From positions 1-26,432 of the forward strand of contig JACPJC010000008.1 in the NCBI GenBank assembly GCA_016187745.1: DNA of 26,432 nt, in the 5' to 3' direction. Shown one piece after another: positions 3,863-23,028 of the stretch; the stretch's first letter is position 1, and each line of letters starts with the position of its first letter. The DNA is from Candidatus Iainarchaeum sp. Its GTDB lineage: Archaea; Iainarchaeota; Iainarchaeia; Iainarchaeales; JAXPJC01. The notes beneath the pieces were generated by a model, which was not told the origin of the DNA, searched no databases, and saw only the letters and a list, made by a program, of their open reading frames with translations. The position numbers and the translations under genes were made by a program.

Positions 3863-5827
3863 TTATCCGCCCCTTAACAGCCTTGTGAAAAATACAAGAT
3901 TGTAGTCTCCACTGGCATCAGGCCCAACACCCCAGACAACATCAAGCTTATTAAGGCCTGTTTCTGCCTTTGCATCTTGGTTTGCCCTTGCAACAGCAGC
4001 ACCAAGATTGTTGTTTGTTAGATTTATAATATTATCAAAGCTTAAGGTTGAGGCGTTATAGTGTCTGTAAAACAAATCATCGCCGGAATCCCACTTGTGC
4101 CAGAAGAAATAAACATTGTTGTCTGAATCAACACTCATTGAAGGCATCCATCCTTCAACTGCAGTAATGTTTGCCAGCGGACTCCAGTTGCTGATATTGC
4201 TGCAATTTGATGCGCAGGATCTGTAGAGAATTCCCTGCCAGGAGCAATCAAACGCAACATAAATTTTCCCTGCATTATCCTGAGCCATGTACTGATGGAA
4301 CCTGCCGTAGTAGCAATTGCTGCCTTCGCTGAGATTTACATCTGCGCTCCAGTTGTTTAAGTTGTTGCAGCCAGTTGTGCAGGTTTTGTAGAGGATGTTT
4401 CCATCCCAGAAGGTTAGATGTTTTGTGCCATTGTTATTTACTGCAATTTGCGGATTATCGCTTGTTGTGCTAATGCTCAATTGACTGCTCCAGTTGCTTA
4501 AATCATTGCAATCGTTTGAGCAGGTTGTATATATAACCCCTGGGTTTGCATCAAGGACCAAATATAATGTATTTGAATCTGCTGCAAGGTCGTGCCTGAA
4601 GCTCTGGAAAACAAACTTTATCGGAGCAGACCAGTTGCTTGGGCTTGTGCAGTTCTGCCTGCACTGGCTGTAAAATGTAGTGTACCATCCGAAGGTTGGA
4701 GGATAGATATGGAGCCATGCAACATTTATGAACCCGTTTGAATCAACTGCAATTGTCGGATACGCAGATCCCATTTGCGCCCCTATTGGATTTTTGCTTA
4801 TGTTTGCGGGGGCACTCCAAGTGCTTCCATTATCGTCGCTTTGAATGAAATATACTTCTGAGCTGGTATCATTGAATTCCCCGCTTGCATATACAAAATA
4901 AAGGATATTGCGCTCTTTGCTTCTTGCAAGCGCCTCCATGTTGCCTGTTACATAATCCGTGCCGCCTCCATATGCAAATGCTGATTTTGCTATATATTTG
5001 TAGAGCATGAAATTATTGTCTGAGGAGTCCTCGGCGCCTGAGGCCTCATCGGAAACCTTCAAATCCAGGTAATAGCGCCCTGTTGTCTGTATGCTGTAGG
5101 AATTCCAGTCATAGTAGCAGGTCTGCGCTGTTGAGAAATCCCCCCCTCCGGAGCAGTTCCTGTCGGGCTGCGGGCTTTGCGCAAGGCTGAGAAGGTCCAA
5201 ATTCTGCACAATAGGGGTTTTCTTTGCGCCCTGCTGCGCGCTGTAATAAATATCCGCCTTCGGGTTTGAATCGTCCAAATCAAGGACTGTGAATTTTATT
5301 ATCATTTTCGGCCCGTTGCTCCAGAAGTCGCCTCCGTTGTTTGGATACAACAGGGCTGTTTGCGGCGGGATGTTCGGGATTGTAATTGGCACAAAAAGGG
5401 CGGTGCCTGTGCAGGCCGCCTTCTCAACGTGGGCCGCCCCTCTCCTTGTCTTGTAGTTTATTTTTATGTTTCCGCTGTATGTTTGCCCCTGCGAAAGGCC
5501 TGTTATGCAGTATATGTTGAAATCGTCCGCCGCATTTACTGCTGATGAGCTCGGGGCGCAGCTGCCCGCCAAACCCTCTGCGGCCTCAGCGCTCACATTT
5601 GTAATCCTTTCTCCTGTTCCGTTGAGGAGATAAATCACAAAATTCCCGTTTGAGTCAACTGTATGGTCGGAATAGGCGAACTTCCCGAGGCCTGTGCAGG
5701 TGCTTGCTGTCGGCAGTTTTATGATGCCCATAAAAATAAGCACCCCTGCAACAACTGCAATTATTACAAGGGCAAAGCCGTATGTTGAGAGATATTCAAG
5801 CGCGGCCTGCGCCTTCCGGGATTGCAT
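3863..5827 (-). CDS. Class III signal peptide (type IV pilin-like) protein with beta-rich middle domain and C-terminal Asp-box/beta-propeller-like repeats; candidate adhesin
   Basis: MQSRKA/QAALEYLSTYG followed by a hydrophobic helix; SDDNGSTWS Asp-box; four YxxCxxxCxxxxNWS repeats. Confidence 0.8.
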   Translation of the reverse strand: MQSRKAQAALEYLSTYGFALVIIAVVAGVLIFMGIIKLPTASTCTGLGKFAYSDHTVDSNGNFVIYLLNGTGERITNVSAEAAEGLAGSCAPSSSAVNAADDFNIYCITGLSQGQTYSGNIKINYKTRRGAAHVEKAACTGTALFVPITIPNIPPQTALLYPNNGGDFWSNGPKMIIKFTVLDLDDSNPKADIYYSAQQGAKKTPIVQNLDLLSLAQSPQPDRNCSGGGDFSTAQTCYYDWNSYSIQTTGRYYLDLKVSDEASGAEDSSDNNFMLYKYIAKSAFAYGGGTDYVTGNMEALARSKERNILYFVYASGEFNDTSSEVYFIQSDDNGSTWSAPANISKNPIGAQMGSAYPTIAVDSNGFINVAWLHIYPPTFGWYTTFYSQCRQNCTSPSNWSAPIKFVFQSFRHDLAADSNTLYLVLDANPGVIYTTCSNDCNDLSNWSSQLSISTTSDNPQIAVNNNGTKHLTFWDGNILYKTCTTGCNNLNNWSADVNLSEGSNCYYGRFHQYMAQDNAGKIYVAFDCSWQGILYRSCASNCSNISNWSPLANITAVEGWMPSMSVDSDNNVYFFWHKWDSGDDLFYRHYNASTLSFDNIINLTNNNLGAAVARANQDAKAETGLNKLDVVWGVGPDASGDYNLVFFTRLLRGG

Positions 5828-13917: not shown

Positions 13918-13979
13918 CCTTGGCGCGCAATTCCCTCCTTTTTTTAAATTGTGTTCAGGAAAGGTATTATTGGGAGAGC

Positions 13980-15872
13980 ATGGCAAAGGGTTCAATTGCG
14001 GAGCTGCTTGAAACGCTGCAGGGATATGAGACGGATGAGCACATTGCCGGGGTGCAGAAGGCATTTGAGCTTGCCAGGGGCCTTTATGGAAGTGAATTGA
14101 GGGAATCAAGGAAATTCTGCATAAAGCACCTTGTTGAGGTTGCGGGCATTGTTGCGGGATTAAGGCTTGACTGCAATGCGGTTTCCGCGGCGCTGCTTCA
14201 TGAGGCTGTTGCGGACGGGAAAATTACGGCCGAGGAGATAGAAAAGGCAACAAACAGGGAAACCGCTGCGCTTGTTGACGGGCTGGCAAAGCTAAAGAGA
14301 ATTTCCCTCAAGATAAAGAACATTGCCGAAATGGAAAACATGAGGAAGGTGCTGCTCGCAACAAGCAAGGACATAAGGACTTTGATAATTCTCCTTGCTG
14401 AAAGGGTTGCGGAGCTCGGGGAATTTGGCAGGCTCGGGAAGGAGAAGCAGGAGGAGCTTGCAGAAGAAAACCTTAACATCTATGCGCCAATTGCGCACAA
14501 AATGGGAATGAACAAGATAAAGGACATTCTTGAGGACAATTCATTGAAATACCTTAAGCCGGAAATTTACAGCAAGCTTGCGGGGATGCTTTCAGCCTAC
14601 CGGAAGGAAAAGGAAAAAAGCCTTGAGAAGGCAAGGCAGGCGCTCAGGAAGAAATTTGAGGAGCTCGGGATAAATGCGGAAATACAGGGGAGGACAAAGC
14701 ACATTTACAGCATATACAGGAAAATCTATGAGCGGAACATAAAATTCAATGAGATATATGATTTGGTTGCGCTGCGCGTAATTACAGGGAGCGTAAAGGA
14801 ATGCTATGAGCTGCTTGGGATGATACACTCAATCTGGAATCCGCTTCCGGGAAGGTTTGATGATTACATTGCAAGGCCGAAGCCCAACATGTACCAGAGC
14901 CTGCATACGACAGTAATAGGGCCGGACAACAGGCCCATTGAGATACAGATAAGAACTTTGGAGATGCACAGGATTGCGGAGGATGGAATTGCAGCGCACT
15001 GGCGCTATAAGGGGGAGATGGGCGAAAAGGATTATGACAAGAAGCTGCTCTGGCTAAAGGAGATTTATGACTGGCAGCGCGGAAAGGAGGAAAAGGGGAA
15101 TATTGATTCGCTGAAAATTGATTTTTTCGAGAACAATATTTTTGTTCTGACACCAAAAGGCGAGGTAATAGAGCTGCCTGAGGGCTCGACCCCCATAGAC
15201 TTTGCATATGCAATCCACAGCGATCTGGGGGGCAAATGCGAAAGGGCAAAGGTCGATGGAAAGCTTGTTCCGCTGTCCTATGCGCTTGAGTCCGGGGACA
15301 ATGTTGAAATTATAACTTCCCCAGCGCAGATGCCGAAAAGCGCGTGGCTGAATTTCGTGAAAACAAGCAAGGCAAGGGAGAAAATAAGGGAGGCGCTGCA
15401 GATTCAGGCAGCAAAACCCCAAAAGGCAAGAAAGCGCGGGGCAAGGCAGGTCATAATAAAGGCCTCGGACAAGAGGCTGAGGCTTGCAAAGTGCTGCAGC
15501 CCGCTCCCCGGGGACGAGGTTGTCGGGATACTCACAACAAAGCGCAAAATTTCAGTGCACAGGGCAAATTGCGAGAACATAAGGGTTCTGGGCTCCAGGG
15601 AAAAAATTGTGAATGTTGATTTTTCAGGGGGAAAAGGAAAATTCCCCGCATCGTTTGCGGTTGAGGCAAAGGACAGGCCCAATCTGCTTTCGGACATTCT
15701 CAACCTCATTTCAAGGGACAATGTGACCATAAGCTCGGCAGAGGCAAAATCCCTTGGAAAGGAGCAGACCGCATGCAAATTTGTTGTTATGGTGAGCAGG
15801 CCGGAGCAGCTCGAAAGGATAATAAATAATTTGTCCAGTGCAAAGGGAATAACACGCGCTTACAGGATTTAA
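13980..15872 (+). CDS. rel: Long RelA/SpoT homologue (pseudo-HD, synthetase, TGS, ZFD, ACT/RRM)
   Basis: GRTKHIYSIYRK, YDLVALRVI, DYIARPKPNMYQSLHTTV, EIQIRT..MH..AE.GIAAHWRYK; TGS DFAYAIHSDLG; ZFD AKCC..HRANC; ACT DRPNLLSDI. Start at ATG 13980. Confidence 0.95.
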   Translation: MAKGSIAELLETLQGYETDEHIAGVQKAFELARGLYGSELRESRKFCIKHLVEVAGIVAGLRLDCNAVSAALLHEAVADGKITAEEIEKATNRETAALVDGLAKLKRISLKIKNIAEMENMRKVLLATSKDIRTLIILLAERVAELGEFGRLGKEKQEELAEENLNIYAPIAHKMGMNKIKDILEDNSLKYLKPEIYSKLAGMLSAYRKEKEKSLEKARQALRKKFEELGINAEIQGRTKHIYSIYRKIYERNIKFNEIYDLVALRVITGSVKECYELLGMIHSIWNPLPGRFDDYIARPKPNMYQSLHTTVIGPDNRPIEIQIRTLEMHRIAEDGIAAHWRYKGEMGEKDYDKKLLWLKEIYDWQRGKEEKGNIDSLKIDFFENNIFVLTPKGEVIELPEGSTPIDFAYAIHSDLGGKCERAKVDGKLVPLSYALESGDNVEIITSPAQMPKSAWLNFVKTSKAREKIREALQIQAAKPQKARKRGARQVIIKASDKRLRLAKCCSPLPGDEVVGILTTKRKISVHRANCENIRVLGSREKIVNVDFSGGKGKFPASFAVEAKDRPNLLSDILNLISRDNVTISSAEAKSLGKEQTACKFVVMVSRPEQLERIINNLSSAKGITRAYRI

Positions 15873-15929: not shown

Positions 15930-16679
15930 GTGAGGAATATGGAGCGCGTTGCAACGGGAATAGACGGCTTTGACAGGCTTATTGATGGCGGATTGCCAAA
16001 AGGGAGGACCTTCCTTGTTACAGGAGGCTGCGGAACAGGAAAGACGCTTTTTTCACTTGAGTATATTTTCAACGGGGCGAAGGAATATTCCGAGCCGGGT
16101 GTTTTTGTGACAATTGATGCGACCCCGAAAACAATAAGGGAGGACGCGCTCGCAATAGGCATGGACATCAAAAAGCTTGAGGAGAAGGGGCTTGTGAAAA
16201 TAATTGATGCCTCTGTTGCAAGGATTGGAATCCCCTCGCAGGAGGAGTATGCGATGCCCGTTACCGGCTTTGACCTGGACAAGCTGCTCCTGGAAACAAT
16301 GCGCGCGACAAAAAAAATCGGCGCAAAAAGGGTTGTGATTGATTCAACACCTGCGCTGGGGCTGACTTTCCAGAATTCCGAGGATGTGAGGAAGGCTGTT
16401 CTTAAAATCAATTATGTGCTCTCGCAGAGCGGGGCAACTTCCATGATAATTTCCGAAATTGCTGAAGGCTCAAAGGCGCTGAGCAAATATGGGGTTGAGG
16501 AATATGTTGTTGACGGGGTAATTGTCCTGCATTACCTTGAGGCAGGGGCAGGGGCGAACCGCCTGCTGCATGTGAGGAAGATGCGCGCGACGAAGCATTC
16601 CGAGGACCTGCATCCGCTTGAGATAACTGATTCCGGGATAAAAATTTACAAAATAGAGGAATTCAGGAAGAAGCGCTGA
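15930..16679 (+). CDS. Single-domain KaiC/RAD55-family ATPase
   Basis: TGIDGFD.LI.GG.P, Walker A GGCGTGKT, Walker B VVIDS, EEYVVDGVI, RKMRAT.H. Confidence 0.93.
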   Translation: MRNMERVATGIDGFDRLIDGGLPKGRTFLVTGGCGTGKTLFSLEYIFNGAKEYSEPGVFVTIDATPKTIREDALAIGMDIKKLEEKGLVKIIDASVARIGIPSQEEYAMPVTGFDLDKLLLETMRATKKIGAKRVVIDSTPALGLTFQNSEDVRKAVLKINYVLSQSGATSMIISEIAEGSKALSKYGVEEYVVDGVIVLHYLEAGAGANRLLHVRKMRATKHSEDLHPLEITDSGIKIYKIEEFRKKR

Positions 16680-16723: not shown

Positions 16724-18325
16724 TTATATTTCCTGCAGCCTTTTTATTATCTTGTCAATGCCTATTGCAATTGCAAGCGAGCCGAATTTCGGCCCCTGCT
16801 CCTTCCCTATTGTCATAAGGTATAATTTTCTGAATATTTCCCTTGGCTGGAGCTCATGCTGCTTTGCGGAGCCGTAAATTAGCATCTGTATTTCCTCGGG
16901 GGTTTTCGCTTTTGGCAGCTGCCTTGCTATTTCGCTGAAAACTTCCCTTGTTTTGCTGTCATGCTCTAATCCTTTGGGGGCTTTTTCAAGAAATCTTATT
17001 TTCATTTCCTCAGGGGCATAATTGTCCAGCCAGTATTTTGCCCTGAGAAGCTGCTGCCTTATTTCGCCCTTCTGCCCCTTTGCCTGCCCTGCGCTTATGT
17101 GGCTTGTTTCTGAAAGTATTTCAAGCGCCTTTTCAATGTTTTTTTCCGGATCCGCAATCTGCGCAACGAGGGTCTGCAGGGAAAAGGGAATCTGCGCAGG
17201 CATTTCTTTCTGGGCTTTGCGCATTTGCGAGAGTGCATAGTCCTTCCTTGCTGTTCCTGTAAGGCCTTCATCGCGAAGTTTTTCCGCGCCATAGTAGACG
17301 CGCTCTGCCTGCTCATATCTTTCAACAAGCAGGGGGAAGGAATTGTCATTTAGGCTGAACTCTATTGCAGAGCCCGGGCGGTAGGAAAGGTTCATAAACC
17401 TGAAAATTTCCGGCTTTGCAACTTTCAGCCATTCCTGCAAATCAATTACGTTCCCAATAGAGCCTGACATTTTTGCGCCGCGAAGCTGGATGAATTCAGC
17501 GCCATAGAGGAGAGGCGCTTCCATTCCGAAAATTTCCTTTGCAAATGCCTTTCCAGTATCTACTGATCCCCCGCGGGCAAAATGGTCCTTTCCCCCGGAT
17601 TCAAATGCGACATTGAAGACGCTCCAGCCTGCGGGCCAGTGCATGCGCCAGTGCAATTTTGCCCTTCCATCAAAGGGCCTTGTTTTTGCCTTGTGCCCGC
17701 AGCCGCCTGATTCTTTTTTGCATGCGTATTCGACTTCCTTCCCGTCCCAGTTCCCTGCTTCAGTAAAACTTAATTTGCCGCAGTTTTCGCACACTATCTG
17801 GATTGGAAGGAAATTTGGCGCCTTTTCAGTCCCGGTTATTTCATTCCAAATCCCCACAATCTTCTGCGCATTGTCAAGCGCGGTTTTTATTTTCTCATTG
17901 TAAAGGCCTTTTTTGTAGGATTCGTAGCAGCTTATCCTGTTGGGAACTGCCCCAAAATCCCCAATGGCCTCAAAAAGCTTGCCGGTAAAGCAGGAAGCCC
18001 AGGATTTGTATTCCGGGAAAGGGCTCGGGATATTGTAATATGGCACGCCCTTGTACTGCTCAAAGTCCTTTTCTTTTATTGGGAGATTGCCGGGAATTTT
18101 GTCCATGGGGTCAAAATCATCAGCAAGGAAATTGAATTTTGCCTTGAGCCCTTTTGCAGCCAGCGCCTCATAAACCAGTTCCGGGACAAAATACTCAACC
18201 CTTGCGTTGCCTATGTGGAAGTATCCGCTCGGAGTCCACATTCCGTGGCATACGTATTCCTTAAGGTTTTTTTCAGCAAGCGCGCCTGCAATTAACTCAG
18301 GCCATGCCTTTTCAGAGGAAGCCAT
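16724..18325 (-). CDS. lysS: Class I lysyl-tRNA synthetase
   Basis: TPSGYFHIGN, two Cys-rich Zn segments, KLHWR.HWP, ESGGKDH, KMSGS, GPKFG. Confidence 0.95.
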   Translation of the reverse strand: MASSEKAWPELIAGALAEKNLKEYVCHGMWTPSGYFHIGNARVEYFVPELVYEALAAKGLKAKFNFLADDFDPMDKIPGNLPIKEKDFEQYKGVPYYNIPSPFPEYKSWASCFTGKLFEAIGDFGAVPNRISCYESYKKGLYNEKIKTALDNAQKIVGIWNEITGTEKAPNFLPIQIVCENCGKLSFTEAGNWDGKEVEYACKKESGGCGHKAKTRPFDGRAKLHWRMHWPAGWSVFNVAFESGGKDHFARGGSVDTGKAFAKEIFGMEAPLLYGAEFIQLRGAKMSGSIGNVIDLQEWLKVAKPEIFRFMNLSYRPGSAIEFSLNDNSFPLLVERYEQAERVYYGAEKLRDEGLTGTARKDYALSQMRKAQKEMPAQIPFSLQTLVAQIADPEKNIEKALEILSETSHISAGQAKGQKGEIRQQLLRAKYWLDNYAPEEMKIRFLEKAPKGLEHDSKTREVFSEIARQLPKAKTPEEIQMLIYGSAKQHELQPREIFRKLYLMTIGKEQGPKFGSLAIAIGIDKIIKRLQEI

Positions 18326-18367
18326 AAAGCATCATATAAATTAGAGTAGATAAATTAAATAAGCCTG

Positions 18368-18655
18368 CTAAAAGATTTCCCAGTCGTCATTGCTCCGGAG
18401 TTCTGGCCTTTTCTTTATCCTTTCCTTCAGCGGAACATCAGGCTCTGCGCCCGCCCCTGCCAATTCCTTTGGGGGCCTTAAGATGCTTGTTTGCGAGCTT
18501 CCCCCTTTGATGCTTTTTTTGAAGGAGTTTATTTCATCAATGCTGCCTTCCCTCATTGCGCCAACATAGTTGCAGCGCCTGCAGCGTTCGCTATTTAGGC
18601 TTTTTGCAAGATCAAAACCCGCACACTGCGGGCAGTATTTCAGCTTCAAAGACAA
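18368..18655 (-). CDS. Small Zn-ribbon protein
   Basis: YCPQC...CRRCNYVG and an acidic-aromatic end (DDWEIF). Probable TTG/GTG start at 18655/18658; the longer ORF would overlap the upstream gene. Confidence 0.7.
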   Translation of the reverse strand: MSLKLKYCPQCAGFDLAKSLNSERCRRCNYVGAMREGSIDEINSFKKSIKGGSSQTSILRPPKELAGAGAEPDVPLKERIKKRPELRSNDDWEIF

Positions 18656-18696
18656 CACCCCGAATTCTGACTTATAATGTTCGGAAGAAGTTGTAT

Positions 18697-19014
18697 TTAA
18701 TTCTTTTGTGCTTTGGGCTCGTCTTTTGGCGGTTCCTGGGTTTTCTGCGCCCACTTGCTGAAATACCATATGCCTATTACACAGATGATTGTTACAATTA
18801 CCGCTGCAAGAATCCTGTAGATGTAGGCTGAAACAACAGGCATCCCGAGGATTTTCAGCATTTCATTCACGCCTTCCCGAATCACGCCCTGCCAGTAAAG
18901 CGCAATAACCAATGCAAAGGCCGTTGTGATTGCGAGCGCGAGCCTTGTGCGCATTTCTGCCTCAAGTTTTCTCGCCTCTTCCTGCAGGCTTTTTGTAATC
19001 TTCCTTCCATCCAT
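18697..19014 (-). CDS. DUF5654-like two-TM membrane protein
   Basis: ITTAFALVIALYWQ..I resembles the DUF5654 pattern AFGLVAALAW; second TM AAVIVTIICVI. Confidence 0.75.
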   Translation of the reverse strand: MDGRKITKSLQEEARKLEAEMRTRLALAITTAFALVIALYWQGVIREGVNEMLKILGMPVVSAYIYRILAAVIVTIICVIGIWYFSKWAQKTQEPPKDEPKAQKN

Positions 19015-19053
19015 AATTTTCCATCCTTAAGCTTGTTTTGTTTTCGGTTTTTC

Positions 19054-19178
19054 TTTCGGGGTAAAACCCGAAATATTTTTCTCTTTGGGTAAAACCTAGA
19101 CTTTCTCTTTTCCTAAAAGAGAAAGGATTGGTTTTTCTTTTGAACCCCGGGGCCTTTTCTTTTTCCAAAAAGAAAAGG
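19054..19178. repeat. Cluster of short inverted repeats 3' of tRNA-Phe
   Basis: TTTCGGG/CCCGAAA (19054-19073); second GGGTAAAACC (19087-19096); 11-bp IR 19101-19125; 12-bp IR 19153-19178. Confidence 0.8.
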
Positions 19179-19186
19179 GGCTGTTG

Positions 19187-19338
19187 TGGGGAAGGCGGGA
19201 TTTGAGCCCGCGACACTAACCGGGTTATTGGAATAACCGCACGGTTGCTGCTCAGCTGGAAACTTCAGCTTCACATAGGCCAAATCTTTTTGTTGACTTT
19301 AACCAATCGTGTGCTCTACCAGACTGAGCTACTTCCCC
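19187..19338 (-). tRNA. tRNA-Phe(GAA) with three introns (30/31, 37/38, 43/44)
   Basis: Removing 19270-19307, 19246-19262 and 19217-19239 gives a 74-nt cloverleaf: GGGGAAG TA GCTC AGTCTGGTA GAGC A CACGG CT GAA GA CCGTG GTGTC GCGGG CTCAAAT CCCGC CTTCCCC A. Each junction lies in a BHB or relaxed-BHB motif. Confidence 0.88.
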
Positions 19339-19375
19339 GTCAAATGAATTGCTCCTCCAAATGATTTTTATATTG

Positions 19376-19492
19376 CGAGCCCGGGGGGATTTGAACCCCC
19401 GACAAACGGATTAAGAGTCCGTTGCTTACTGGGAAGATGAAATTTAATTTGAATCAAACTTCAACTTCTCTACCAGGCTGAGCTACGGGCCC
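19376..19492 (-). tRNA. tRNA-Lys(CTT) with 43-nt D-arm intron (22/23)
   Basis: Intron 19427-19469; mature 74-nt cloverleaf with anticodon arm ACGGA-CT CTT AA-TCCGT and G73; CCA not encoded. Confidence 0.95.
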
Positions 19493-19530
19493 AACACATA
19501 TAATTGGAGAGGGAAAGAATTTAAATAAAG

Positions 19531-19644
19531 TGGCGAGCCCGGTGGGATTTGAACCCACGACAAACGGCTTAAAAGGCCGTTGCTTACTGGGAAATTCTGA
19601 TTAATTAAAACCAGAGTTTCTCTACCAGGCTGAGCTACGGGCCC
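19531..19644 (-). tRNA. tRNA-Lys(TTT) with 37-nt D-arm intron (22/23), CCA encoded
   Basis: Intron 19585-19621; anticodon arm ACGGC-CT TTT AA-GCCGT; ends G-CCA. Confidence 0.95.
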
Positions 19645-19701
19645 ACACACATAATATCTGTGAATGATTAACTATTTAAATATACAAAATGCAATCTATC
19701 T

Positions 19702-20397
19702 ATGCAAAGATGGAGCGTTGGAAAGCCTGTTATACTAATTCCTGCCTATAATGAGGAAAAACTTATTGGAAAAACTATAGACTTGATAAAAAGGACGGGG
19801 GTTAATGCAGGCATAATTGTTGTTGATGATGGCAGCACTGACAGAACTGCAGAAATTGCGGCGCGGAGAGGCTGCAGAGTTGTGAGCCTACCAAGAAATT
19901 TTGAAAAATCTAATGTGTTTTTTGCAGGAATAAAGGAGGCGCTTAAAACAAACCCCGCCGCAGTTGTGACAATAGATGCTGATTTGGTTAAACTTACTGG
20001 CGCATCTTTGAAGAATATTATTGATGATGCGGCAAAGGCAACAAAGAATGGAAAGGCAAGGATGTTTGTTGCAGAGCCAAGGGAAAGAAGTTTCCCTGGC
20101 ATGTGGTTTTTGTCCGGATTTAGGGCTTTTAGTTTGCCAGCATTATATAAATTGCGCGCATCAAAACTTAAAGCTGTTCCAAAAGGCTTTGGGCTGGAAA
20201 TTTTTTTGAATGATTTCTTCAAATACGGAAATTTGCCAGAACGCTTAATTAGTGCTAGATTGAACCGTTATGATGGGGCGGTATTTGAGAAACAATACAG
20301 GGTGCGGGGCAGCCAGGAAAAGCAGGCTTTTGAAATTGACTTAACAGTTAAAAGACTTAAAAGGCGGGCACCAAAAAGAAGAAATTTGCCAAAATAA
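19702..20397 (+). CDS. GT2-family glycosyltransferase-like protein with basic C-terminal tail
   Basis: IPAYNEE, VVDDGSTD.T, DAD (DxD), SGFRAF; C-terminus KRLKRRAPKRRNLPK. Confidence 0.85.
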   Translation: MQRWSVGKPVILIPAYNEEKLIGKTIDLIKRTGVNAGIIVVDDGSTDRTAEIAARRGCRVVSLPRNFEKSNVFFAGIKEALKTNPAAVVTIDADLVKLTGASLKNIIDDAAKATKNGKARMFVAEPRERSFPGMWFLSGFRAFSLPALYKLRASKLKAVPKGFGLEIFLNDFFKYGNLPERLISARLNRYDGAVFEKQYRVRGSQEKQAFEIDLTVKRLKRRAPKRRNLPK

Positions 20398-20401
20398 AGA
20401 G

Positions 20402-21769
20402 CTAGTTATGTTTCTTTTTTGGCTTTGCCTTTTTCTTCTGCTTGCGCGCTTTTGGTTTTGCTGCTTGTCTTGCCTTTTTGCCCTTGGCCTTTTCAGGCTT
20501 TGGAAGCGCTTTCCTTATTTCCTTTATTCCGCGCATATAGGGAACCAGAACCTTGGGAATTTTTATGCTGCCGTCTGCCTGCTGGTTGTTTTCCAAAAGC
20601 GCAATCATGAGGCGCGGGAGAGCAAGCCCCGAGCCGTTCAGGGTATGCACAAATTTTGCGCCTTCAGGGGTAAAATACTTTGTGTTCATGCGCCTTGCCT
20701 GGAAGTCCTTGCAATCGCTGCAGGAGCTTGTTTCCAGATAGCGCCCCATTGCTGAGGCATAGCACTCAATATCATAGGTTTTTGCAGAGGCAAAACCCAT
20801 ATCGCCTGTGCAGAGCAGAAGCGTTCTATAAGGAACTTCAAGCAGCTCAAGGAGCTTTTCCGCGCGGGCGCGCATTGCTTCAAGTTCTTTTTGGGAATCC
20901 TCCTGCTTGCATATAACTACCATTTCAACCTTATCGAATTGGTGCAATCTGAATATTCCGCGGGTTGCTTCGCCGTGTTTTCCCGCTTCAGTGCGGAAGC
21001 AGGGGGTATAGGCGCAATAGCGCTTTGGAAGCTCTTTTGGATTCAATACTTCAGCGGCATGGAGGTTTGTAAGCGGAACTTCGGCTGTCGGAATTAAATA
21101 AAGGCCTTCGCGGGTTTTGAACAAGTCATTTTCAAATTTCGGGAGCTGGCCTGTTCCGAACATTGTTTTCTCATTGACCAGTTCCGGGGGGAAAATTTCT
21201 GTCCAGCCGTCCCTTGTGTGGAAATCAAGCATGAAATTTATCAGCGCCCTTTCAAGCGTTGCGCCCAACCCCTTGAAAACATAGAATCCGGAGCCGGCCA
21301 ATTTTGCGGAGCGCTCCAAATCAAGGATGTCAAGGCCCTTCCCGAGCTCGGAGTGGTCCTTTGGCTTGAACCTGAATTTCGGGATTTTTCCCTGTTGTTT
21401 TACAACTTTGTTGTCCTCTGAGCCCGCGCCCTTTGGAACTGAAGCATCAGGGAGATTCGGGAGGGTTTTGGTTATTGCGTCAATCTGGCCCTTCAAAGCG
21501 TCTGCCTGAACCTCAAGGGATTTTATCTGCTCGGGAATTATCCTGACTTCCGCAATCTTTTGCGCAGCATCAGCCTTTTTCACAATAAGCTCCTTGATTT
21601 CTGCTGAAAGGACATTGCGCCTGTGCCTGAGCGCGTCAGCCTGCTCTTTGAGGCTCTTCCATTCTGAATCCTTCCCCGCAAGCCCGTCAATATCCGCATT
21701 ATAGCCGCGGCTCTGCAATCCCTTTTTCACAACTTCCGGGTTTTTCCTGATTAGGTCAATGTCAAGCAT
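20402..21769 (-). CDS. serS: Seryl-tRNA synthetase (standard/bacterial type) with Lys-rich C-terminal extension
   Basis: True start MLDIDLIR at 21769; GTGQLPKF, LIPTAEVP, FRTEAG, HQFDKVE, FQARR, HTLNGSGLA..R. Confidence 0.96.
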   Translation of the reverse strand: MLDIDLIRKNPEVVKKGLQSRGYNADIDGLAGKDSEWKSLKEQADALRHRRNVLSAEIKELIVKKADAAQKIAEVRIIPEQIKSLEVQADALKGQIDAITKTLPNLPDASVPKGAGSEDNKVVKQQGKIPKFRFKPKDHSELGKGLDILDLERSAKLAGSGFYVFKGLGATLERALINFMLDFHTRDGWTEIFPPELVNEKTMFGTGQLPKFENDLFKTREGLYLIPTAEVPLTNLHAAEVLNPKELPKRYCAYTPCFRTEAGKHGEATRGIFRLHQFDKVEMVVICKQEDSQKELEAMRARAEKLLELLEVPYRTLLLCTGDMGFASAKTYDIECYASAMGRYLETSSCSDCKDFQARRMNTKYFTPEGAKFVHTLNGSGLALPRLMIALLENNQQADGSIKIPKVLVPYMRGIKEIRKALPKPEKAKGKKARQAAKPKARKQKKKAKPKKKHN

Positions 21770-21811
21770 TTGTCTCTGATATAAAAAGATATTCATATAA
21801 CTTAAATAATT

Positions 21812-22345
21812 ATGGTTAGGGCAAGTGTTTTGAGATATGGGCACAGGAGCGTCAGGGATTATCGCGTTACAAGCCACTGCGCGCTTGTGGCAAGGGCTTT
21901 CGGCGCAGAGGGCATAACCATATGCGGGGAGGAGGACGAAAGCATCAGGCGGAGCATTGAGAAAGTTTCTGAGAAATGGGGCGGAACTTTCAGCGTCGGT
22001 TTTTCCGATTCGTGGAAAAATGAATTTAAGAAGTTCAGGAAGAGGCGGAATTCCGCAATAGTGCATCTCACAATGTATGGGATTCCATTGCAGAAGGCGA
22101 TTGGGAAAATAAGGAAATTCGGGAATATTATGGCTGTAATTGGCTCGCAGAAGGTTGAGGGCGCGGTGTATGGGGATTCTGATTTCAATGTAAGCGTCAC
22201 GCAGCAGCCGCATTCTGAAATTGCCGCGCTTGCTGTTTTTCTGCACGAATTGTTCGGGGGAAAGGAGCTTGAAAGGAAATTTCCAAATGCAAAAATAAGG
22301 ATTATCCCTAAAGAAAAAGGGAAAAAAGTTCTGAAAGGGGAATAA
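21812..22345 (+). CDS. trm56: tRNA (cytidine56-2'-O)-methyltransferase aTrm56
   Basis: LRYGHR..RD.RVTSH.ALVARAFGA, VHLTMYG, IGSQKV, QPHSEIAALAVFL. Confidence 0.96.
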   Translation: MVRASVLRYGHRSVRDYRVTSHCALVARAFGAEGITICGEEDESIRRSIEKVSEKWGGTFSVGFSDSWKNEFKKFRKRRNSAIVHLTMYGIPLQKAIGKIRKFGNIMAVIGSQKVEGAVYGDSDFNVSVTQQPHSEIAALAVFLHELFGGKELERKFPNAKIRIIPKEKGKKVLKGE

Positions 22346-22384
22346 ATTGCTTTTTAATCCTTTTTCTATCAAGTTATATAAAGC

Positions 22385-22924
22385 ATGGCTAAGAAAGACC
22401 TGGTTGAGTTGTCTGTTGTCAAGGAATTCCTGAACAGCAAGGCGGGAGAACATGCCTGCGAGCTGGTAAGGATATGCAACAGCAAGAAAATTGTGAATGA
22501 TGAGTTCATAGCAGGCAAGCTGGGGCTGAAAATTACTGAAGTTAGGGCCATACTCAACAGGCTGCATTACCATGGGGTTGCGTATTATGACAAGAAGCAT
22601 GATTCGCGCTCGGGGTGGTATAGCTACACCTGGAAGATAAACAGCAAAAGGATAGCTGAATTGATTCTTGGGCAGCAGGCCGAGGAAGTGCAGAAGCTTG
22701 AGAGCAAGAGGGATTTCGAGAAAAACTACAGCTTTTTCAGCTGCAGGAAGAACTGCGACAATTTCCAGTTTGAGATTGCTGCGGAATACGGATTCCGCTG
22801 CCCGCAGTGCGGGGACATGATGAATTCCGTTGACAGCAAAAAGCGCATGAATCTTGTAAACAACAAGATAAAAAATATCAGGGAAGAGATTGATGTGCTT
22901 GAGAAGTTCTGCAAGGCCGTATAA
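22385..22924 (+). CDS. tfe: Transcription factor E alpha subunit
   Basis: Winged helix (DEFIA..LGL...EVR.IL..L...G...Y, SGWYSYTW) plus Zn ribbon (CRKNC...FRCPQCG) and coiled tail. Confidence 0.93.
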   Translation: MAKKDLVELSVVKEFLNSKAGEHACELVRICNSKKIVNDEFIAGKLGLKITEVRAILNRLHYHGVAYYDKKHDSRSGWYSYTWKINSKRIAELILGQQAEEVQKLESKRDFEKNYSFFSCRKNCDNFQFEIAAEYGFRCPQCGDMMNSVDSKKRMNLVNNKIKNIREEIDVLEKFCKAV

Positions 22925-23028
22925 AAACACATAAATCTGGACGAAATCAGCAGGCATTAAAAGGGATTAAATTTAACAGCAAATGTTAAAAGAAGGTTGA
23001 TTTTGGTTTTGTTTGCATTTTTGTCTTG

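Follow-up and report, generated by a model that had tools for sequence, protein, structure and literature searches.

How might an archaeon both make and break an alarmone? Signalling by (p)ppGpp is regarded as a trait of bacteria and plastids, and the question is raised here by a single gene in a stretch of 26,432 nucleotides from Candidatus Iainarchaeum sp. (hereafter the window), part of a 964-kb genome that is in 10 contigs and 91% complete. The gene lies at 13980..15872 on the forward strand and encodes P0001, a 630-residue long RelA/SpoT homologue (RSH). A first-pass annotation of the window, made from its letters, had proposed a synthesis-only, RelA-like enzyme with a dead hydrolase site, which would need a separate hydrolase. 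We consider it probable that P0001 is the synthetase-only ([hS]) half of a two-enzyme alarmone circuit, completed by a second long RSH, P0121, in this Diapherotrites/Iainarchaeota-type DPANN archaeon, and that the two stem from the duplication of an archaeal Rel. Sequence and phylogeny are the basis for the layout of domains, the opposite decay of the motifs, the distribution and the presumed common origin of the two proteins. In the scheme outlined here, P0001 would move pyrophosphate from ATP to GDP or GTP, with (p)ppGpp as the predicted product, its N-terminal HD domain would be kept as a folded non-catalytic module, and P0121 would degrade the alarmone. Both genes would go back to the duplication of a single archaeal short-linker Rel, after which each copy lost the activity that the other kept.

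Domain layout and active-site motifs of P0001

The open reading frame is stop-free and is identified by Pfam, NCBIfam and alignment to Bacillus subtilis Rel (6yxa), which is its closest relative of solved structure (464 bits). An in-frame TTG at 13920 offers an alternative start that would add 20 residues, but the ATG at 13980 is favoured because close homologues are 630-631 residues long. The protein has the domain order of a long RSH (pseudo-hydrolase, synthetase, TGS, helical, zinc finger and ACT), with the helical domain reduced to a short remnant. The pseudo-hydrolase domain (residues 28-177, 14061..14510, on the forward strand like every feature of the gene) matches Pfam HD_4 with 114 bits, its fold being retained and its catalytic residues altered, and gives no Pfam match to the general HD model PF01966. 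It is followed by the RelA_SpoT synthetase domain (residues 237-346, 14688..15017; Pfam, 147 bits), in which the catalytic motifs are all intact, and by a TGS domain (residues 387-446, 15138..15317; Pfam, 81 bits), in which H413 corresponds to H432 of E. coli RelA. Then come a shortened helical linker (residues 447-503, 15318..15488), delimited by the linker measurement and an AlphaFold model, a zinc-finger domain (ZFD) with C505, C506, H527 and C531 (15489..15572), placed by the motif alignment, and an ACT/RNA recognition motif (RRM) domain (residues 553-629, 15636..15866; Pfam ACT_4, 60 bits). The Pfam profile RelA_AH_RIS gives a weak partial match below its cut-off (residues 451-531, profile positions 98-172 of 185). 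The subfamily hidden Markov models that the first-pass annotation had suggested as a check place P0001 in the RelA/SpoT family (NCBIfam TIGR00691, 613 bits for a cut-off of 499.2) and in neither equivalog, since it stays below both that for RelA of Beta- and Gammaproteobacteria (NF008124, 434.4 bits for a cut-off of 728) and that for SpoT (NF008303, 472.5 bits for a cut-off of 947).

Aligned to 6yxa, the HDVVED of the hydrolase site reads HEAVAD in P0001 (H74-E75-A-V-A78-D79, replacing HDxxED; residues 74-79, 14199..14216). The LADRLHN reads LAERVAE (L-L-A-E141-R-V-A144-E145, LLAERVAE replacing KLADRLHN; residues 138-145, 14391..14414; alignment and motif table), and the RFKD at the RxKD/ExDD charge-motif site of the synthetase reads RFDD (R292-F-D294-D295, 14853..14864). 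The synthetase keeps its motifs (GRTKHIYSIYRK, YDLVALRVI, YQSLHT and IEIQIRT) intact, and the TGS motif is AIH413SDLG. The first-pass annotation had picked out these substitutions together with the intact synthetase, TGS histidine, ZFD and ACT, and Pfam and the 6yxa alignment confirm it on each. The changes are not due to chance, because all motif positions are in register across 34 bacterial sequences. The intact HDxxED, LADRLHN and RxKD that would define a bifunctional Rel are thus not found in P0001.

The pattern extends to the relatives of P0001 (type A), as counted in an alignment of 38 type A sequences, 17 of the P0121 type (type B) and 34 from bacteria, after removal of a bacterial row that had been poorly extracted and of seven archaeal rows representing fragments or small RSHs. 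Each of the 38 type A sequences has the canonical residue at ten synthetase positions (R, K, K, D, R, D, Y, Y, E and Q), at the TGS histidine and at all four ZFD sites. At the hydrolase positions the canonical residue is found in just 1-27 of 38; ED still has its first acidic residue in 2/38, and LHN its histidine in 1/38 and its asparagine in 6/38. Bacterial sequences are canonical in 33-34/34 at nearly all scored positions, the exceptions being mostly one RelA-like sequence. According to the part of the work of Sajish et al. that bears on these motifs (PMC2666561), RXKD accompanies bifunctional enzymes and EXDD monofunctional ones, which lack HDXXED. At the charge motif of type A, the first position is E in 18/38, R in 7/38 and S in 3/38, and the third is D in 28/38. 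EFDD itself occurs in 18/38, and the RFDD of P0001 has the DD but R for E. By these counts the type A clade as a whole appears to have moved to the RelA-type ExDD, RFDD being a variant of P0001 and its close kin P0002-P0006, and the special hybrid motif of the first-pass annotation becomes a variant of one lineage. P0002-P0006 retain the HD doublet, the first acidic residue of ED being replaced by A or F, and they share with P0001 the loss of the LHN histidine and asparagine and the change of the LADR aspartate to glutamate, a pattern that fits drift in a disused hydrolase site. The sequence as a whole indicates that P0001 is a synthesis-only, RelA-like enzyme, much as the first-pass annotation had it.

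The predicted hydrolase partner

The HD_4 and RelA_SpoT profiles each find exactly two places in the genome when searched against its contigs. The second of these is P0121, a type B long RSH of 571 residues on another contig (C4 of the genome, G000; 18220-19932). Its decay is the reverse of that of P0001. The hydrolase motifs RxSGxPY..HP, LLHDVIED and KLADKLHN are retained, while the synthetase GRxKHxYSIYxK site reads KYYKNCYTINKK and KVYIAT stands at the EVQIRT site. TGS and ACT domains are still present, the former without its histidine, and the zinc finger is missing. Domain scores run in opposite directions, at 114 bits for HD_4 and 147 for the synthetase in P0001 and at 158 and 86 bits, respectively, in P0121. 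Type B as a group behaves in the same way, nine of the ten hydrolase positions being canonical in 16-17/17 (the arginine of LADR is a lysine in 15/17), while the catalytic glutamate and glutamine of EVQIRT and two arginines of the synthetase are each retained in 0/17, the TGS histidine is found in 2/17 and the zinc finger is absent from 17/17.

The hydrolase activity that P0001 appears to lack is thus predicted to reside in its own long-RSH paralogue. The first-pass annotation was right that a second gene should exist; the expectation that it would be a small alarmone hydrolase (SAH), Mesh1 or Nudix enzyme need not hold. When the genome was searched for these, the HD_4 profile returned nothing besides the two long RSHs that could stand for an SAH or Mesh1 as the missing hydrolase, and the three generic Nudix genes present are not linked to the RSH system. 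In one relative (G028), a small Nudix gene lies directly downstream of type B (L040:1009-1464). In public databases, P0122, which is 95% identical to P0001, and P0130, the representative of the cluster of the type B paralogue, are both named 'bifunctional', a label that is probably wrong for both paralogues.

Possible sensing of uncharged tRNA

How P0001 would be switched on is the step that we propose with the least assurance. By analogy with RelA, deacylated tRNA on the ribosome might activate it through H413 of the TGS domain together with the ZFD and ACT domains. H432 of E. coli RelA is stacked against the CCA end of the tRNA, and with an H432E substitution RelA is no longer activated by deacylated tRNA, as described in the pertinent part of one study (PMC7797070), and the ZFD and RRM bind the A-site finger, a contact that another report, in the portion concerned, describes as key for binding and activation (PMC5829649). 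A role of type A as the sensor fits with the retention of the TGS histidine and ZFD residues in all type A sequences and their loss in type B.

The helical domain speaks less clearly. Measured as the number of residues from the TGS histidine to the first ZFD cysteine, the linker is 91 residues in P0001, 179 in E. coli RelA and 175 in the median bacterial sequence (n=29), which bears out the short linker noticed in the first-pass annotation. It ranges from 86 to 95 residues in type A, from 95 to 100 in bifunctional archaeal forms (described below) and from 119 to 189 in bacteria. An AlphaFold model of P0001, built from a 40-sequence alignment, has a mean predicted local distance difference test (pLDDT) score of 81, with values of 87-93 over most of the pseudo-hydrolase domain, and its N-terminal half superposes on the catalytic domains of Staphylococcus aureus Rel (7oiw) with a template-modelling (TM) score of 0.95 and a root-mean-square deviation of 1.6 Å. 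Between the TGS and the zinc finger the model contains one 16-residue helix (463-478) and then a low-confidence loop. Because the helical domain is truncated, sensing of tRNA by P0001 may be weak or different, which weighs against the sensor step of our scheme.

The truncation is also the starting point of a different account, in which P0001 would make (p)ppGpp without being a ribosome/tRNA sensor, the shortened domain reflecting a lost RelA-type docking mode and the C-terminal half taking some other input, such as an ACT ligand or the KaiC-like ATPase encoded downstream. The helical domain of P0001 is some 85 residues shorter than in bacteria, and in B. subtilis Rel, as stated in the section of PMC7797070 on tRNA binding, the TGS domain alone formed no stable complex with tRNA whereas a TGS-Helical fragment did. 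Moreover, the archaeal ribosome is unlike the bacterial one, and a single-domain KaiC-like ATPase gene (15930..16679, forward strand; Pfam KaiC, 246 bits) lies 58 nt downstream of P0001, such a gene being found directly downstream on the same strand in 14/30 type A loci. However, the KaiC-like linkage is absent in 16/30 loci, and the histidine that stacks on CCA and the four ZFD residues are kept in 38/38 type A sequences and found in 2/17 and 0/17, respectively, of type B, which is what would be expected if type A alone still reads tRNA. We therefore regard an enzyme without this sensor as rather unlikely, though worth keeping in mind. As for the sensor reading in its fullest form, a true stringent response of DPANN that is independent of the proteobacterial one, with type A docking on the archaeal ribosome to read the CCA end of uncharged tRNA, an argS-co-transcribed type B resetting the signal, duplication and reciprocal loss having taken place inside archaea, and archaeal targets, we put it forward tentatively, as a possibility that is somewhat more doubtful than not.

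Distribution and the question of residual hydrolysis

The family is widespread in its lineage. The synthetase domain is found in 36/41 related genomes of the same order, across 32 families and including a genome in one contig, and in 156/204 genomes of a sample of the phylum. Outside the main families it is rare (3/18 in one family and 1/18 in five further families), and five outlier genomes of the phylum (G205, G180, G182, G186 and G056) have only short or partial RSH-like pieces. The presence of RSHs in Diapherotrites was already known in 2021, when, in the passage of that study devoted to them, RelA/SpoT genes were counted in 69% of Diapherotrites genomes and predicted to have been acquired from Bacteria (PMC8407392). 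With such figures, the view in the first-pass annotation that long RSHs are sporadic in DPANN does not hold here. A survey of RSHs in 2011 reported, in the text on archaea that we cite, no long RSH in them (PMC3153485), and an update in 2019 listed 13 long-RSH subfamilies, in passages that make no mention of archaea (10.1101/575399). No description of a split synthetase/hydrolase pair in archaea was found in the literature, subscription journals and supplements being outside the scope of the search. What is added here are the site counts for the split pair, the third archaeal group, the support for a grouping of A with B, the linker lengths and the linkage to argS.

Genes extracted from the related genomes comprise 30 of type A, 17 full or nearly full type B genes with one further fragment, and a few shorter A-like forms. 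Two of the latter, L066 and L067 (in G002 and G033), are 460-466 residues long and without zinc finger or ACT, their synthetase motifs and TGS histidine being intact and their tree branch very long. Type B is present in 18 related genomes, all of which also carry type A. Several observations weigh against a strict division of labour. Five genomes that are 90-99% complete (G016, G015, G025, G013 and G020; L160-L164), among them a 99% complete genome assembled as one contig and a 97% complete one assembled as two, have no HD_4 match other than type A (5/5), so that either another hydrolase exists in them or the enzyme is not very active. In addition, P0001 keeps H50 and H74, and its two metal-ligand aspartates are replaced by glutamate (H-H-E-E for H-H-D-D), conservative changes after which some residual metal binding may be possible. 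It is also the case that these five genomes, with a synthetase and no RSH-type hydrolase, are contrary to the rule seen in bacteria.

These same observations are the best argument for P0001 being bifunctional still, its H-H-E-E site binding metal and weakly hydrolysing (p)ppGpp, with P0121 as an extra hydrolase. The two histidines are kept, the aspartates have become glutamates rather than unrelated residues, the public names of P0122 and P0130 say as much, and the A-only genomes have no other HD_4 protein. Yet the first acidic residue of ED is an alanine in P0001 and the histidine and asparagine of LHN are alanine and glutamate, and the free drift of these positions across the clade (2/38, 1/38 and 6/38) argues against selection for catalysis. 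Furthermore, PF01966 matches P0121 and P0028 (an archaeal Rel introduced below) and not P0001, and loss of HDxxED is, in the relevant part of the work of Sajish et al. (PMC2666561), the accepted mark of monofunctional enzymes. A bifunctional P0001 is thus very improbable. Still fewer grounds exist for supposing that the enzyme is silent, or that it yields something else, be it (p)ppApp or, as with some small RSH toxins, a tRNA with a pyrophosphorylated end. Some RSH enzymes do make (p)ppApp or modify tRNA, as outlined in the section of PMC10118264 on these activities, and (p)ppGpp is undetected in archaea. However, the synthetase signature of long RSHs is complete in P0001, with a canonical YQSLH loop and EIQIRT and with tyrosine, glutamate and glutamine retained in 38/38 type A sequences, and P0001 occurs alongside a paralogue that is a dedicated HD hydrolase of the (p)ppGpp type, so that this alternative is highly improbable.

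Phylogeny and origin

Among bacteria, P0001 is matched most closely by Bacillota Rel, with 45-50% identity across some 75% of its length. A search with P0028, a 638-residue protein in which all HD and synthetase catalytic residues are intact, led to a third archaeal group (P0028, L202, L206 and L207), made of short-linker Rel with high HD_4 and RelA_SpoT scores. The archaeal markers aTrm56 and GatD are present on the contigs of L206 and L207, two of the four members. A FastTree phylogeny (93 rows) and a site-mixture IQ-TREE phylogeny (48 rows) both recover types A and B and the sampled bacteria as groups, with support in the two trees of 97 for type A, 99-100 for type B and 97-98 for the bacterial sequences, which include E. 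coli RelA and SpoT. In a full maximum-likelihood (ML) tree (59 sequences by 627 columns, LG+F+G4, 1000 ultrafast bootstraps), support, given as SH-aLRT/UFBoot, is 89.4/97 for type A, 100/100 for type B, 98.6/100 for the bifunctional archaeal group, 94.7/96 for A+B and 98.9/98 for the separation of the 29 bacterial sequences, E. coli RelA and SpoT among them, from all archaeal-type sequences. The short linker that type A shares with the bifunctional archaeal forms is an independent character that agrees with an archaeal origin. The convergence with RelA that the first-pass annotation had suggested finds support here too, P0001 not being nested in proteobacterial RelA, scoring 434 for a RelA equivalog cut-off of 728 and falling on the archaeal side of the 98.9/98 split.

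Some results weigh against a duplication within archaea. Four trees were compared in topology tests (LG+F+G4, fast searches), and the tree with A+B had the best likelihood of the four. However, a tree constrained to unite A with RelA was worse by 43.6 log-likelihood units with a borderline p of 0.051 in the approximately unbiased (AU) test, and one uniting B with SpoT was not rejected (AU p 0.43). The proteobacterial paralogues sampled were E. coli RelA, one RelA-like sequence and E. coli SpoT only, and A and B are both long branches that may attract each other. Since the topology tests are weak, the sampling of RelA and SpoT sparse and the branches long, the duplication and functional split of one archaeal short-linker Rel, independently of RelA/SpoT, is likely but not secure. 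Recent transfer of P0001 from bacteria, specifically from proteobacterial RelA, or its presence through contamination of the bin or a chimeric contig, is rejected as having a negligible chance of being correct, for although the family is bacterial in origin (acquisition from Bacteria being predicted in the passage cited above; PMC8407392) and the A+RelA constraint is not formally rejected, the flanks are archaeal on both sides (RadA, RPA, GGGP synthase and class I LysRS), the window is even in GC content, the gene is found in 36/41 genomes of the order and in many families, one-contig genome included, its nearest bacterial matches are Bacillota Rel at 45-50% identity, the RelA equivalog is not reached and the ML tree sets bacteria apart.

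Some bacterial RSHs encountered in the sampling deserve mention. L281, an RSH of 627 residues from a metagenome contig of low GC content (0.29), belongs to the bacterial group in the tree; its sequence ends 17 residues after the zinc finger, so that it is without ACT. Two bacterial genomes of 9.3 and 9.6 Mb, G206 (L169 and L170) and G216 (L177 and L186), have two long RSHs each, of which one scores strongly and the other weakly for the synthetase. The strong copy of G206, which is L146 itself, is of RelA-like character and clusters with E. coli RelA. In the class to which the L146 genome belongs, most genomes have one long RSH, so that it is not a RelA/SpoT class, and these loci were left unused.

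Comparison with known systems

E. coli RelA ([hS]; PDB 5iqr and 5kpv) is the obvious functional counterpart of P0001. Both combine a pseudo-hydrolase with the signature of an active synthetase, each has as its partner another long RSH, one with the hydrolase, and RelA and type A share an acidic xDD motif (EFDD in 18/38 of the clade) and the retention of TGS histidine, ZFD and ACT. Nevertheless, P0001 is not an orthologue of RelA (434 vs 728 bits, and a position outside the bacterial split), it has R for E in the motif and a linker of 91 rather than 179 residues, and its host is an archaeon. Bacillota Rel (6yxa, 7oiw and RelSeq 1vj7) provides the best matches in sequence and structure and has the same domain order. 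P0001 differs from it in having lost the HDxxED and LADRLHN catalytic residues, in reading RFDD instead of RFKD and in its truncated helical domain. Like SpoT, of which a hydrolase-only form is that of PDB 7qpr, P0121 combines an intact HD with a degenerate synthetase in a long-RSH architecture with TGS and ACT. Unlike SpoT, it is without zinc finger and TGS histidine, and it groups with type A in the ML tree, although the B+SpoT constraint has an AU p of 0.43. The archaeal short-linker Rel (P0028, L202, L206 and L207) resemble P0001 in length (623-638 residues), in a helical domain of 95-100 residues and in lying on the archaeal side of the split. They differ from it by high scores on both HD_4 and RelA_SpoT, and P0028 by keeping all HD and synthetase catalytic residues and having an E-x-K-D motif.

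That one small archaeal genome should carry both the make and the break halves, with a clean reciprocal loss of activity as judged from the residues, matters for two reasons. The pair consists of two concrete proteins on which the idea of an archaeal stringent response can be put directly to the test. It also replicates, in nature, the division of labour between RelA and SpoT and can therefore show which features always accompany the loss of the hydrolase, candidates being the acidic charge motif and the restriction of tRNA-sensing parts to the synthetase. The shortened helical domain, for its part, raises the question of how, or whether, type A reads the archaeal ribosome.

Gene neighbourhoods

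The genes on both flanks of P0001 are archaeal and encode RadA, an RPA-like protein, geranylgeranylglyceryl phosphate (GGGP) synthase, class I lysyl-tRNA synthetase (LysRS), the KaiC-like ATPase and PolX, in a window whose GC content is even throughout. The nearest homologues of this RadA that carry a name are mostly from 'Candidatus Diapherotrites archaeon', in keeping with a DPANN host of the Diapherotrites/Iainarchaeota type. An open reading frame of 654 codons at 3863-5827 (reverse strand) matches no Pfam family at E<=0.001. Among type A loci, a gene for an FtsX-like permease is convergent with the RSH gene in 7/30, and a triose-phosphate isomerase gene identified by Pfam adjoins it upstream on the opposite strand in 11.

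Type B has a more telling neighbourhood. In 14/17 loci it is immediately preceded by argS on the same strand, the gap being estimated at 4-136 nt, and one of the three other loci begins at a contig end. A class I aminoacyl-tRNA synthetase (aaRS) gene of the Ile/Leu/Val/Met type is convergent downstream of type B in 7/17 loci, and an alanyl-tRNA synthetase gene is near it in at least two. The linkage of the type B hydrolase to tRNA-charging genes is suggestive, and argS and type B are probably co-transcribed. Near type A, the window contains genes for the class I LysRS (16724-18325, reverse strand) and for seryl-tRNA synthetase (SerRS; 20402-22957, reverse strand), 0.9 and 4.5 kb away. The SerRS open reading frame is 851 codons long, its N-terminal domain starting at residue 397 after some 390 residues with no Pfam match. 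P0121 lies on contig C4 between genes for arginyl-tRNA synthetase (ArgRS) and a class I aaRS. With LysRS and SerRS near type A, and ArgRS and the class I aaRS flanking type B, both paralogues thus stand among tRNA-charging genes in their own genome.

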